A DNA stretch of 24,107 nucleotides. It comes from Armatimonadota bacterium (lineage in GTDB: Bacteria > Armatimonadota > SYMT01). The notes beneath the pieces were generated by a model, which was not told where the DNA came from, made no database searches, and saw only the letters and a list, made by a program, of their open reading frames with translations. Location of the stretch: the NCBI GenBank assembly GCA_046292385.1, contig JBKBRF010000071.1, positions 1 to 24,107 of the forward strand, read 5' to 3'. A program made the translations under genes and the position numbers. Of the stretch, positions 304-20,836 are shown piece after piece (the first letter of the stretch is position 1; every line of letters starts with the position of its first letter).

Positions 304-377
304 CAGGTTGCAGGTTGAGCTCCCCGATGCGTGGGGTTCGGAACCTGGAACCTGCTAACCTGCAACTTTCTAACCTA
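304..377. repeat. Inverted heptamer-array element (CAGGTTG x2 / (G/C/T)AACCTG x3-5)
   Basis: CAGGTTG at 304-310 and 311-317; reverse-complement-like units GAACCTG 341-347 and 348-354, CTAACCTG 355-362, degenerate units to 377. Confidence 0.7.
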
Positions 378-397
378 ACAGCATCGAGGGAGCGGCT

Positions 398-426
398 CTC
401 CCACTCTCCCTTGCTCCCACTCCCAC
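398..426. repeat. Octamer tandem array CTCCCACT (3-4 degenerate units)
   Basis: CTCCCACT 398-405, CTCCCTTG 406-413, CTCCCACT 414-421, CCCAC 422-426; lies 3 nt past the kinase stop codon. Confidence 0.6.
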
Positions 427-429
427 AAA

Positions 430-3081
430 TCAGCTGTCCCTGGTATCCAGCACTTCCCGCACGCGGACGGCCAGCTCCAAGGGTGAGCACGGCTTCTGGA
501 TCAGCAGCGCGCCGGAACGCTCCACGCCGTGGCGGAGGACGGCGTCGTCGGTGTGGCCGGTCATGTAGAGCACGCGCGTGGAGGGGCGAAGCTCCCCCAG
601 CCGGTCCGCCAGTTCGCGGCCGCTCATGCCGGGCATCACCACGTCGGTGAGCAGCAGGTGGATCTCCCCGTCGTGCGCGGCGGCGAGGGAGAGCGCGGCG
701 GTCCCGCTCTCCGCTTCCAGCACGGAGTAGCCCGCGCCGCGCAGCACATCACCCACCAGCCGCCGCACCATCTCCTCGTCCTCGGCGAGTAAGATCGTCT
801 CACGGCCTCCGGGGAGCGGGCCCGCGGCCGGAGCGGCCGGCCGCTCTGCCGGCGGTGCCGTCGCGGCCGCCGGGAGGTAGATCTCGAAGGTGGTACCGGC
901 TCCCGGCTCGCTCCAGACGGCGATGTGACCGCGGCACTGCTCCACGATGGCGTAGGTGGTGGCGAGTCCGAGCCCGACCCCTTCTCCCAGCGGCTTGGTG
1001 GTGAAGAACGGCTCGAAGATCTGCGCCAGCGTGTCGCTGTCCATCCCGCAGCCGACGTCCGTCACTCGGAGCAGCACGTACTCGCCGGGGGTGAGGTCGC
1101 CCATTCGCGCCGCTTCCCGCGCGCGCAGTCTCACCCGCTCGGTCTCGATCGAGAGGCGGCCGCCGCGCGGCATCGCGTCGCGAGCGTTGAGCGCCAGGTT
1201 CATTAGCACCTGCTGCATCTGCGCCGGGTCCGCCGTGATCCACGCGGCGGCCGGCGCGAGACGCGTCACCAGGTCGATGTCCTCCCCGATCAGGCGCCGG
1301 AGCATGCGGCTGACCTCCAGGACCAGCTCGTTCAGATCGAGCTGCTGGAACTGGGCGATCTGCTTGCGGCTGAAGGTGAGGAGCTGGCGGGTTAAGCCGG
1401 CCGCGCGGTCGGCGGCGGCGCTGATCTCCGTCAGATAGCCCCGCCGGCGGTCGCCGGGAGGCCAATCCGCCAGCAGCAACTCGGCATAGCCGTTGATCAC
1501 GGCGAGCATGTTGTTGAAGTCGTGCGCCACGCCCCCCGCCAGGCGGCCGATCGCCTGCATCTTTTGCGCCTGGCGGAGCTGCTGCTCCAGCAGCTTCTGC
1601 TCGGTGACGTCCCGGTTGGCGCTCAGGATCGCGGTGCGGCCGGCGTAGTGGACCGCGGTGGCATGGATCTCCAGGTGCATCCGGGCGCCGTCGCGTCTCC
1701 GGTGGACCGTCTCGAAGTGGTGGAACACGCCGGGGCCCGCCAGCGTCGCCTCCACCTGCTCCCGGCCGTAAGGGATGTTCGTCGAGAGGTCCAGGATGGA
1801 GCGACCCACCAGTTCGTCTCGAGAGAAGCCGTACATCCGGCAGGCACGCTCGTTCGCTTCGAGCACGGCTTCCGTGTCGGGGTCCAGGATCAGGAGGCCA
1901 TCGTGCGAGGCTTCGAAGAGGCCGCGGTAGTCGAGCTCCGACCGGCGGAGCGCCGCTTCGACCCGGTGGCGCTCCGTCACGTCGCGGGTGTTAACGACGA
2001 TCCCCTCCACCGCCTCGTCCTGGAGCAGGTTGGCGCCGATCGCCTCCAGCACTCGCCAGGTGCCGTCCCCGTGCCGGAACTGGAGCTCCACCCGCTCCAG
2101 GCCGCCCGGACGGGCGAGAAGTCGCTGGAACGCCTCTGTAACCCGCGGCAGATCGCGCGGATGGACCTGCTCGAAGACGCTCCGGCCCAGCAGCTCCGTC
2201 GGCTCGTACCCGAGCACGTGCCGGATCGGAGGGCTCTGGTAGCGGATCCGGCCCTCCTCGTCGAGGATCGACACGACCTCGGAGCCGCGCTCCACCAGCG
2301 CCCGGAAGCGCTGCTCGCTGCGGAGACGATCGGCCTCCGCTTTCCGCTGCTCCGTGACGTCGCGAGAGTTGACCACGATTCCGGCGATATCGGGGTTTTC
2401 GAGCAGATTCCTGGCGATCGACTCGAGGCGCCGCCACTCCCCGGAGCGGGTGCGTGCCCGGTACTCCGCCCTCACCGGCTGGTCCGGCAGCGAGAGCGCC
2501 CGCACCAGCATCTCCCGGAACCGCGGCTCGTCTTCCGGGTGGACCAGCACCTGAAAGCTGGTGCCGGCGAGCTCCTGGGTGGTAAAGCCGAGGATGCGCT
2601 CCAGCGCGGCGCTCTGGAAGCAGACGGTACCGTCCCGCTCCAGGATCGAGATGATCTCGGACGCGTGCTGGATCAGTGCTCGGAATCGCACTTCCCGGCG
2701 GCGGAGCAGGGTCTCCATCTCCGGCTTGGACCCGCCCGGCAGCTCCAGCGACACGAGCCAGGTGTCCGGCTCGCCGTCTGCCGGCACCGGGCTGAAGAGT
2801 ACCGTTCCGGATCTCGGATCGCCGCTCCGCACCGCCGCCGGAGCCGAGATCGCTTTCCCCGTCTCGAGCGCGGCCGGGCTCGGCAGCTCGACGTCCAGGT
2901 AGTCGGTGAGCGGTCGCCCCGCGCACCCGTCCGGCGCGCCAAGCAGCCGCGCGGCAGGAGGAGCCGCCGTGAGGACGGTGCCGTGCGGATCGATCAGCAG
3001 CACCGCGGATCCGAGTTGTCCGAAGATCGCTTCCAGTCGTGAGTCGGTCATGAGAGCGGGCGCGCTATCATGATCTTTCAT
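430..3081 (-). CDS. Cytoplasmic PAS/PAC hybrid sensor histidine kinase (4 PAS + HisKA + HATPase + REC; CckA-like architecture)
   Basis: Repeated PAS-PAC signatures (VHPEDE, VHPRDL, RDVTE/Q); H-box LAGGVAHDFNNML; N-box QVLMNLALNARDAM; G/F boxes DVGCGM, IFEPFFTTK, GVGLGL; receiver ILLAEDE..LLLTDVVMPGMSG..QKP; no TM segment. Alternative start at 3051. Confidence 0.95.
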   Translation of the reverse strand: MKDHDSAPALMTDSRLEAIFGQLGSAVLLIDPHGTVLTAAPPAARLLGAPDGCAGRPLTDYLDVELPSPAALETGKAISAPAAVRSGDPRSGTVLFSPVPADGEPDTWLVSLELPGGSKPEMETLLRRREVRFRALIQHASEIISILERDGTVCFQSAALERILGFTTQELAGTSFQVLVHPEDEPRFREMLVRALSLPDQPVRAEYRARTRSGEWRRLESIARNLLENPDIAGIVVNSRDVTEQRKAEADRLRSEQRFRALVERGSEVVSILDEEGRIRYQSPPIRHVLGYEPTELLGRSVFEQVHPRDLPRVTEAFQRLLARPGGLERVELQFRHGDGTWRVLEAIGANLLQDEAVEGIVVNTRDVTERHRVEAALRRSELDYRGLFEASHDGLLILDPDTEAVLEANERACRMYGFSRDELVGRSILDLSTNIPYGREQVEATLAGPGVFHHFETVHRRRDGARMHLEIHATAVHYAGRTAILSANRDVTEQKLLEQQLRQAQKMQAIGRLAGGVAHDFNNMLAVINGYAELLLADWPPGDRRRGYLTEISAAADRAAGLTRQLLTFSRKQIAQFQQLDLNELVLEVSRMLRRLIGEDIDLVTRLAPAAAWITADPAQMQQVLMNLALNARDAMPRGGRLSIETERVRLRAREAARMGDLTPGEYVLLRVTDVGCGMDSDTLAQIFEPFFTTKPLGEGVGLGLATTYAIVEQCRGHIAVWSEPGAGTTFEIYLPAAATAPPAERPAAPAAGPLPGGRETILLAEDEEMVRRLVGDVLRGAGYSVLEAESGTAALSLAAAHDGEIHLLLTDVVMPGMSGRELADRLGELRPSTRVLYMTGHTDDAVLRHGVERSGALLIQKPCSPLELAVRVREVLDTRDS

Positions 3082-3208
3082 GTCGGAGAGCCTGGTCGGG
3101 GAGGGGTTCTGTGTGTGGGGAGCTATCTAGGTTCGAGCCCAGCAAGAAACGTTCCAACCCACCCGATCCGCGGCATTCGTGCCGCAACTCTCACGCCGAA
3201 GTGGCGAG

Positions 3209-20125: not shown

Positions 20126-20156
20126 TTGACACCCCGGCGGGATTTCGCACTAGAAT
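20126..20156 (+). promoter_or_regulatory. Housekeeping-sigma promoter of groESL
   Basis: TTGACA 20126-20131 and TAGAAT 20151-20156 (19-nt spacer, longer than canonical), directly upstream of CIRCE. Confidence 0.65.
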
Positions 20157-20166
20157 TACCGCGGAT

Positions 20167-20193
20167 TTAGCACTCGACTACTGCGAGTGCTAA
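20167..20193 (+). promoter_or_regulatory. CIRCE element (HrcA operator)
   Basis: Exact consensus TTAGCACTC-N9-GAGTGCTAA upstream of groES. Confidence 0.97.
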
Positions 20194-20325
20194 CCAGAGT
20201 CCACTTGACCCAGGTTTTCCGGCCCGGCGCTCCGGCGCGCGGCCGGGTATCTCCGCCCCACCCGGGGCGCTATGGCTCGCGGCGCCGCGAGCCCGGACGC
20301 TTAGCACGCAGGAGAGGTGACTAAC

Positions 20326-20619
20326 ATGGCCAGTCTCAAGCCGCTTTCCGATCGAATCATCGTGAAGGCCGTCGAGGGCGAAGAGAAGACCGCCGGCGGC
20401 ATCGTGCTGCCGGACTCCGCCAAGGAGAAGCCGCAGCAGGGCGAGGTGGTCGCCGTCGGCCCCGGCAAGGTGCAGGACAACGGCAAGACCGCGCCGATGG
20501 ACGTGCAGGTCGGCGACCGCGTCTACTACGGCAAGTACAGCGGCACCGAAGTGAAGCTGGACGGCCAGGAGCTGGTGGTCCTCCGCCAGGACGACATCCT
20601 CGGCGTAGTCGAAGCCTAG
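20326..20619 (+). CDS. groES: Co-chaperonin GroES
   Basis: [58 protein letters not shown] favours ATG 20326. Confidence 0.98.
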
Positions 20620-20836
20620 TCTTAGGGTTTAAGGTCTAGGGTCTAGGGTCTAGGGGGTCGAGGACGGGGAGCCTGGTGTTCACGGTTTAGGTCTGGGCGG
20701 GTGACGGACGCGGGGGGAAGGATCGCGGCGTAAGCCGCACCACCCCTACACCCTAGACCCTAACCCCTATACCCTCGCGAAATCGCGGTGCAAGCGGCAC
20801 CACCCCTACACCCTGACCCCTGGACCCTACACCCTC
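20616..20836. repeat. Heptamer-armed fold-back element, TAGGGTC family, with duplicated right half
   Basis: TAGGGTT TAAGGTC TAGGGTC TAGGGTC TAGGGGG (20623-20657); inverted ACCCTAS units 20743-20776 and 20803-20836; ~55-nt direct repeat 20722-20776/20782-20836. Confidence 0.85.

Follow-up and report, generated by a model that had tools for sequence, protein, structure and literature searches.

Stop-codon-proximal heptamer-armed fold-backs in an Armatimonadota genome and their probable origin in four-helix-bundle gene cassettes

This report deals with five fold-back elements in a stretch of 24,107 nucleotides from an Armatimonadota bacterium (assembly GCA_046292385.1, contig JBKBRF010000071.1; the whole stretch is called the window below). 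Each consists of short tandem units, a core, and the same units inverted. The favored explanation, to which we give a probability of about 0.6, is that the five belong, as non-autonomous members without cargo, to a class of mobile cassettes that in its full form contains a gene for a TIGR02436/PF05635 four-helix-bundle protein. Elements of this kind have been copied around the genome, are specific to the lineage, represent insertions relative to related genomes and lie directly 3' of intact, native stop codons.

The four-helix-bundle cassette and its probable cargo-less relatives

The tie between the arms and one gene family is seen across the 7.04-Mb assembly that holds the window (G000, 68.9% G+C). 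It has eight PF05635 genes, all of which match TIGR02436 and all of which lie between inverted arrays, with arms built from TAGGGTC, GTAGCGT, GGATGAR (twice), AAGGCAG, GCGTATT (at a rearranged locus), the octamer GAGTGGGA and the hexamer GGAGAA. Two of the encoded proteins were used as queries in a scan of other phyla, with one genome per species, and this gave 80 loci from cyanobacteria, planctomycetes, alphaproteobacteria, acidobacteria, chloroflexi and others. Seven of these fall at a contig end, and among the 73 that could be evaluated a flanking inverted repeat with a score of at least 13 was found in 66. An initial annotation of the window, made from the sequence alone, had stated that similar arms bracket TIGR02436 genes in other genomes, and this was borne out both here and elsewhere. 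The best period is 7 in 62 of the cassettes from other phyla and 8 in 4, which, together with the hexamer and octamer arms of this genome, qualifies the further suggestion of a single mechanism or enzyme that recognizes a periodicity of 7 nt.

The sequence just inside the arms is common to cargo-bearing and cargo-less copies. The motif TCCGAACC or its complement GGTTCGGA lies directly inside one arm in three cassettes (IVP5, IVP7 and IVP8), and it has the same place in 15 of 16 cargo-less pairs of the AAAGGC type, 13 of 26 of the CAGGTT type and 3 of 4 with AGGGATG arms, with counts of 0 of 46 for GCGTATT-type pairs and 1 of 21 for the TAGGGTC group. The cassette on contig C7 has the four-helix-bundle gene followed by the right half of the GCGTATT core. 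Protein subfamily tracks the inner motif and not the arm sequence, as the proteins of IVP5, IVP7 and IVP8 are alike, yet are found with GGATGAR or AAGGCAG arms. These common sequences uphold the idea, raised in the initial annotation, that elements such as those in the window are cargo-less derivatives. No open reading frame (ORF) is present inside any window element, the cores being 23–112 nt long; the window copies have no TIGR02436/PF05635 gene and are therefore filed as cargo-less derivatives, not as full members of the cassette class.

The anatomy of the elements was worked out genome-wide, where 1032 period-7 arrays were counted, 788 of them with low-G+C units, and where six heptamer units occur in 37–103 arrays each. 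Neighboring low-G+C arrays at most 400 nt apart are inverted in 132 pairs, direct in 17 and neither in 58, so that the inverted pairing goes beyond that of independent simple repeats; 122 paired elements were left after nested pairs were dropped. The outer stem is formed by two inverted arrays of about four 7-nt units each (median about 27 nt), and the inner stem is specific to the family, with GAACCC...GGGTTCGGA in one group and CGTCGTGCCGGGCG...CGCCCGGCACGACG in another. Between the strands of the inner stem there is either a gene or a short loop. The elements also have a polarity, as the G-rich strand of each arm runs to the center in 99 of the 122 and is reversed in 1, and the arm 5' of the gene has more G than C in all 66 cassettes from other phyla. 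Spacers differ by family and are about 101–104 nt in the GCGTATT type, about 23 nt with CAGGTTG, of which there are 19–26 paired copies, and about 35 nt or longer with AAAGGCW. The 36 GCGTATT copies that can be aligned end to end have nearly invariant arms, GCGTAGCGG junction and 14-bp central stem, with freely varying segments between them, and the RNAalifold consensus of this core retains the arms and the central stem alone. Among the arrays called single, many in fact face a complementary partner inward (60 of 108 CAGGTTG arrays), and others pair with a different unit size, for example (CTCCTG)n followed by CTCGCTGGCGACC. Read most simply, a cassette would have two stems, the outer made of short units and the inner specific to the family, and both would be retained in the cargo-less forms, where a short loop replaces the gene.

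The five window elements (Table 1) conform to this build. Tandem Repeats Finder placed period-7 arrays at every position named in the initial annotation, and an inverted-repeat search of the whole window returned four of the fold-backs as its four longest inverted repeats (12606-12765, 20624-20775, 5627-5800 and 14246-14397), with arms of 28–39 nt that are 85–93% complementary. The fifth, the short CAGGTTG fold-back, can be read straight from the sequence, and the claim of one architecture drawn from several 7-mer alphabets is therefore upheld. A window copy of the GCGTATT family folds as a single long hairpin (−101.6 kcal/mol, z −9.7). The element between groES and groEL is a fold-back as described, but not of the plain inverted design that had been assigned to it: its right half, made up of the arm and a small GCGGC...GCCGC hairpin, occurs twice in tandem at 20722-20836 with a period of 60 and 83% identity. 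The arrays that had been set apart as unpaired also have to be reclassified, since those at 396-422 and 7358-7451 are of types that serve, at other places in the genome, as arms around four-helix-bundle genes. The design with unlike arms at 7358-7451 recurs in a metagenome contig.

Heptamer repeats of this sort have a published explanation as quadruplex-forming sequences (for GGGAATC and GGGGAYT units, in the parts of PMC4692102 used here), and it is conceivable that the arrays are simple-sequence repeats made in place by polymerase slippage, with inverted pairs arising through local template switching. The lengths of the arrays are indeed variable, and the TAGGGTC arrays have G-runs. However, runs of at least three G per unit are found in the TAGGGTC type only, the GCGTATT, CAGGTTG and AAAGGCW units having none, and slippage would not be expected to give non-repetitive cores of 23–104 nt common to dozens of copies, the predominance of inverted over direct neighbors (132 to 17), or arms that bracket one gene family across many phyla. 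We consider this origin very improbable.

Table 1. Fold-back elements, arrays and adjoining genes in the window (positions from its first nucleotide)
Position	Strand	Feature	Details
304..377	.	CAGGTTG-armed fold-back	small hairpin and GGGGTTCGG in the 24-nt core (318-341); arms at 304-317 and 342-376
396..422	-	octamer array, GAGTGGGA on the - strand (CTCCCACT)	arm type same as in the cassette at G000:C47
430..3003	-	PAS/histidine-kinase gene	stop 430-432, 7 nt from the outer side of array 396-422
4540..5634	+	host gene, GT4 glycosyltransferase	Pfam; TAA stop 5632-5634 inside the left arm of 5613-5800
5613..5800	.	AAAGGCW-armed fold-back	GGTTCGGAA directly inside the right arm
7182..7207	+	half-module GGTCGCCAGC and (GAGCAG)n	same module at 20037-20077
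7358..7451	.	fold-back with unlike arms	hexamer arm (GAGAAS)n; core with GGGTTCGGA at its end; heptamer arm (TTCATCC)5.4
10854..12599	+	host gene with GH123 N-terminal domain	Pfam; TAG stop 12597-12599 in the first unit of 12596-12765
12596..12765	.	GCGTAKT-armed fold-back with conserved central hairpin	inverted repeat
14243..14399	.	second copy of the GCGTAKT family	inverted repeat
14401..15189	-	host gene, ABC-2 permease	Pfam; TGA stop 14401-14403, 1 nt from the right end of 14243-14399
18926..18970	.	half element, GGTTCGAA then (TCATCCC)n	its end is 4 nt ahead of an ABC ATPase gene (ATG at 18975)
20037..20077	+	half-module GGGTCGCCAGC and (GAGCAG)n	Tandem Repeats Finder
20317..20619	+	host gene groES	Pfam; TAG stop at the first unit of 20616-20836
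20616..20836	.	TAGGGTC-armed fold-back between groES and groEL	its start coincides with the TAG stop of groES

Several other features of the window were recorded. The subterminal motif GGTTCGAA/GGTTCGGA stands at 18932-18939 and 7406-7413, and we take it to resemble the sequence conserved in the T-arm of tRNAs; it gave neither a tRNA-like fold nor an Rfam match, and an Rfam search of the window gave no match at E values up to 1. The octamer GGTTCGRA occurs 720 times in the genome, counting both strands. The PIN-domain gene at 18442-18864 is preceded by a small overlapping ORF (18206-18445), likely as a toxin–antitoxin pair, and the half element at 18926-18970 comes next. A gene for a DUF1501 protein occupies 12823-14169, and a PVC-type (Planctomycetes–Verrucomicrobia–Chlamydiae) haem-binding protein is encoded elsewhere in the genome; taken by themselves, the two might hint at a lineage like that of planctomycetes.

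Position at stop codons and insertion relative to related genomes

All elements of the window lie between protein genes, and none is in a 23S rRNA helix. The initial annotation had stated that four of the five overlap or abut the stop codon of a gene that reads into them, and Pfam assignments confirmed all four hosts (GT4, GH123-like, ABC permease and groES). The ORF that reads into the fifth element (1-318) runs off the edge of the window and matched no Pfam family. Beyond the window, distances were measured against 5205 genes (80% coding) from a simple, home-made codon-usage caller, which is a weak point in the case for the cassette reading. Of the stop-side flanks 87/134 are within 12 nt of an arm, some overlapping it, as compared to 15/110 start-side flanks, and the proposed enrichment of arm ends at stop codons thus holds genome-wide. 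With five main alphabets considered, 248 stops (84 at paired and 164 at single arrays) abut the outer side of an array and two the inner side. In annotation terms, 266 of the 5205 genes, or about 5%, have their stop in such an array or at most 12 nt from one, and 57 have their start so placed. The cassettes from other phyla behave in the same manner, with 41 of 70 stop-side flanks within −25 to +12 nt as opposed to 9 of 39 start-side flanks, and the upstream neighbor is co-directional with the four-helix-bundle gene 45 times and opposite 10 times.

Between tandem genes, the element is nearer to the stop in 58 of 74 cases, with a median of 7 nt to the stop and 69.5 nt to the next start. When the comparison was limited to tandem hosts with at least 40 free nt once 60 nt had been reserved for a promoter, 13 of 29 elements were within 10 nt of the stop, as against 2.95 expected under uniform placement (simulated P about 5e-6). 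Between convergent genes, the spacer left over beside the element has a median of 23 nt, compared to 105 nt in convergent pairs without arrays. The stops that lie inside arms are TAG or TAA in 29 of 32, matching the unit sequence. TGA makes up 15 of 55 stops at 0–12 nt from an arm versus 42.5% genome-wide, and at larger distances its share is 8 of 32 and 4 of 15; the depletion is therefore seen far from arms as well and is uninformative on targeting. Stop usage as a whole is unusual for a genome of 69% G+C, with TAG at 38%, TGA at 42.5% and TAA at 19.5% in the home-made gene calls.

The proteins that end at these elements keep their native C-termini. GroES terminates at the same residue as in five relatives, and the permease ends in ...EYAPREDAE with its stop in the same place in G001, G005 and G006, differs by one substitution in G003 (…REDSE), and has a different tail in G002, where the match stops before the stop codon. 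For the GT4 protein, the five relatives gave only paralogues of at most 41% identity. A wider check against NCBIfam took in 121 host proteins and 150 neighboring controls, tallied by hand where the best family had E ≤ 1e-60 and at least 85% of the profile was covered. None of 33 host proteins and 2 of 30 controls fell short of the profile end by at least 10 residues, and 7 of 33 and 11 of 30, respectively, overshot it by as much. Since host ends match native ends, the arms generally sit against native stops and do not replace the ends of genes.

The initial annotation had looked to close relatives for filled and empty sites, and insertions were found at groES–groEL and at the ABC permease. The gap between groES and groEL is 10–25 nt in three genomes of the same family (G005, G002 and G003) and 236 nt here, the element accounting for about 215 of those. 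Downstream of the permease stop there is no GCGTATT-type repeat in G001, G002, G003 or G005, and no GCGTATT element was found in any of 200 other genomes of the phylum, for each of which the best four candidates were scored. In G006 (G006:C257), a run of GGACACAGAA-like decamers lies downstream of the permease orthologue, where G000 has its GCGTATT element, an instance of other unit lengths at the same kind of site. The converse case is also seen, as in G006 an array of (GGGTTCA)n starts at the stop of the orthologue of the gene at 5888-7030, and G000 has no array there.

It could be argued that a position at stop codons is what would be expected of RNA structures useful to the host, such as non-canonical terminators, 3'-end stabilizers or RNase III sites, which selection keeps there, with spread being secondary. 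The closeness of stops to the outer side of arrays fits this explanation, and convergent pairs with an element have so little other spacer (23 vs 105 nt) that the element might have taken the place of terminators. Only one intrinsic terminator in 20 kb of the window is convincing, that at 7063-7096, after a GT2 gene (12-bp stem and T-run), and the arms, at about 27 bp, are by general knowledge of the enzyme long enough for RNase III. Against this stand the folding results, as sense transcripts are no better folded than antisense (sense more stable for 26, antisense for 43 of 69 elements with tandem hosts; 234 vs 255 G-U pairs), and the asymmetric cores are found in either orientation relative to transcription, without bias (9 vs 8; 11 vs 8). 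Relatives do without the elements at the same genes, and one element lies within the groES–groEL operon. A pattern search for intrinsic terminators in 20 kb of the window gave 7 matches compared to 6.7 in shuffles, with no element among them, and no T-run, hence no U-tract in the message, follows the arms of the window elements. The initial annotation had offered an mRNA processing or stability signal as one possibility, which gained no support from the one test run, that of sense against antisense folding. On balance, a primary role as host RNA structures is regarded as unlikely.

Mobility and a possible mechanism

No duplication of a target site was detected. Flanking direct repeats of 2, 3, 4, 5 and 6 nt were observed 28, 57, 30, 6 and 1 times, respectively, compared to 30.8, 59.6, 24, 5.5 and 1 in shuffled pairings, and the dinucleotides outside the element ends are variable. 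This is hard to reconcile with ordinary MITEs (miniature inverted-repeat transposable elements) of a DDE transposase, whose marks are terminal inverted repeats and a target-site duplication, and although the small size, inverted ends and many copies are as in MITEs, we find this identity scarcely credible. A reverse transcriptase (PF00078) gave no match in the genome, which is 98% complete.

Movement by a Y1 transposase of the RAYT type (repetitive extragenic palindrome-associated tyrosine transposase) encoded elsewhere in the genome, as in systems of repetitive extragenic palindromes (REPs) and their paired forms (REPINs), would also explain the lack of target-site duplication. Two genes of this genome match Y1_Tnp well (84.7 and 76.6 bits), but no transposase is linked to the arms. 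One Y1 gene (about 145 aa, G000:C51) is flanked by a different, inverted palindrome, GCGAGGGGTT-GAAA-ACCCCTCGC (L001:1424-1447 and L001:1972-1997), and the other, on contig C22, has no arrays nearby. The C51 gene with its own palindrome looks like a separate REP/RAYT-type system. Moreover, at least seven unlike arm sequences would require equally many specificities, and what stands between the arms is a four-helix-bundle gene and not a Y1 gene. The involvement of such a transposase is accordingly judged quite improbable.

The absence of duplication, of orientation or strand bias and of a reverse transcriptase, together with the unlinked Y1 genes, argues against a DDE-type MITE, retro-mobility and a simple RNA-only role. 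What remains is the picture of a symmetric hairpin, defined by shape, that is copied without target duplication. Within the cassette reading, the cargo-bearing form would correspond, as a free-living element, to the ORF-bearing intervening sequences of 23S rRNA, and its gene would be a relative of that for Avd, a protein of diversity-generating retroelements (DGRs); 3 of the 8 PF05635 proteins match the Avd model weakly. The solved relatives of the four-helix-bundle protein, PDB entries 2rld and 2gsc, have five chains each, and 2gsc, which is XCC0516, matches the four-helix-bundle profile with an E value of 3e-27. The element may be handled as a hairpin that is known by its shape, i.e., arm length, periodicity, polarity and inner stem, and not by its arm sequence, which would turn over quickly between genomes. 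We infer that the four-helix-bundle protein acts on the arms in trans, possibly with host nucleases or repair enzymes. Copies would persist or land where translation ends, as a strong hairpin at this place would spare both the upstream protein and the downstream start signals, and once there they would probably behave as 3'-end hairpins of the upstream message.

Several points, besides the quality of the gene calls, weigh against the cassette reading. No PF05635 gene with CAGGTTG arms was found in this genome, despite the 19–26 paired copies of that family, and we know of no catalytic activity in the four-helix-bundle family. Element strand has no association with GC skew (P 0.72 and 0.10), and the left and right variable segments of a GCGTATT core pair no better with each other than with those of other copies (mean −16.3 vs −17.5 kcal/mol), so that neither result supports a particular single-strand intermediate. 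Metagenome contigs of near-identical strains, from four DNA runs, stop at elements, with no empty site readable among them; contig X2 (record 5) departs from the window sequence at 12590. A comparison of relatives, which use units other than those of G000, is in favor of the cassette reading: G006 has 9 PF05635 genes and 147 arrays per Mb, with AATGCGG, AAATCCG and AACCCTG as recurrent units, and G001, of the same genus, has 0 genes, 18 arrays per Mb and no recurrent unit. This contrast consists, however, of two genomes, and the G006 contigs were a non-random set taken from hit lists. (In G005 there are 10 PF05635 genes and 52 arrays per Mb, and the recurrent units are ACGCATC and AACCTTC.) As for the stop codons, at tight operon junctions such as groES–groEL selection alone would force an insert against the stop, so that targeting is not proven, and a gradual loss of useless spacer after insertion could also bring arm and stop together. 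The excess at stops in long spacers and the intact C-termini nevertheless favor a stop position that reflects more than survival alone.

A still wider interpretation may be put forward tentatively, as a possibility on the doubtful side of even. Heptamer-armed hairpins might be a widespread and unrecognized mobile class without a transposase of known family, moved or copied through a shape-reading system centered on the Avd-like four-helix-bundle protein and delivered where translation stops, for example to the ribosome-free, R-loop-prone stretch past the stop codon. The short tandemly repeated repetitive (STRR) arrays, the GGGAATC repeats of Xanthomonas and the intervening sequences of 23S rRNA would then be products of one mechanism.

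Relation to known systems

The STRR sequences of cyanobacteria are heptamer repeats and one near relative of the arrays described here; another has been reported from Xanthomonas. It is already in print that heptamer repeats, GGGAATC in Xanthomonas and GGGGAYT in Nostoc/Anabaena, are intergenic and occur near stop codons, and 70–75 inverted pairs are given per Xanthomonas genome (Rehm et al. 2015, PMC4692102, of which parts were available). The likeness to the window elements extends to the tandem 7-nt units between genes, the inverted pairs and the proximity to stops. In contrast, the sections of that paper used here describe the repeats as quadruplex-forming and state that they are not associated with mobile elements, mention neither a link to a four-helix-bundle gene nor common cores, and concern units unlike most of those here, which cannot form quadruplexes. 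Supplementary file 2 of the same source has an entry for the groES–groEL junction, which is occupied in the window as well, with an inverted pair whose spacer is 60 nt, and another for an array that lies 6 nt from bccP and extends over the XCC0516 start. Judged from these published lists, the Xanthomonas repeats very likely belong to the same system, because of the groES–groEL pair and because XCC0516 is a four-helix-bundle protein (PDB 2gsc).

The intervening sequences in the 23S rRNA of Coxiella and Leptospira are similar in having a gene or remnant of the PF05635 family, complementary ends that form a stem, and a sporadic distribution, as set out in the parts of PMC4990558 consulted. They differ in that they lie in rRNA helices, whereas the elements here are between protein genes and most copies are geneless; heptamer arms and a position at stop codons are no part of the description in those parts of the paper. 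Related subjects are covered, in the portions available, by work on rRNA insertions in the candidate phyla radiation (bioRxiv 10.1101/2024.02.27.582315) and by a review of DGRs (PMC10053308).

A literature search, with subscription journals outside its coverage, turned up no publication in which the armed cassette or its empty copies are handled as a class. What is new here is the cargo-less expansion, the rule of strand polarity and the link to the published heptamer repeats. Three loose ends, namely the cyanobacterial and xanthomonad heptamers, how rRNA intervening sequences move, and what role the large TIGR02436 family with its solved structures plays, become one question, and it comes with rules that can be tested: about four 7-nt units per arm, the G-rich strand inward, a family-specific inner stem, a position at the stop codon and no target duplication. 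In practice, the elements bear on assembly, as contigs of related strains break at them, and they may explain puzzling 7-base repeats of other bacteria.

Among extragenic repeats, REPs lie at gene 3' ends, leave no target duplication and form inverted pairs. REPs, their mosaic combinations (bacterial interspersed mosaic elements, BIMEs) and REPINs resemble the present elements as short, non-autonomous hairpins, often between convergent genes. The present elements differ in having no arm-linked RAYT, many unrelated 7-nt arm units in place of one palindrome, and a four-helix-bundle cargo. By analogy only, the attC sites of integrons are also imperfect inverted repeats in which shape and not sequence is conserved and which flank promoterless cassettes read from upstream; the cassettes here are, however, scattered and not in arrays, and no integrase or attC boxes were seen, with no search having been aimed at them. 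There is thus a real chance that the heptamer-armed elements form a class of their own, beside the extragenic hairpin repeats and the rRNA intervening sequences.

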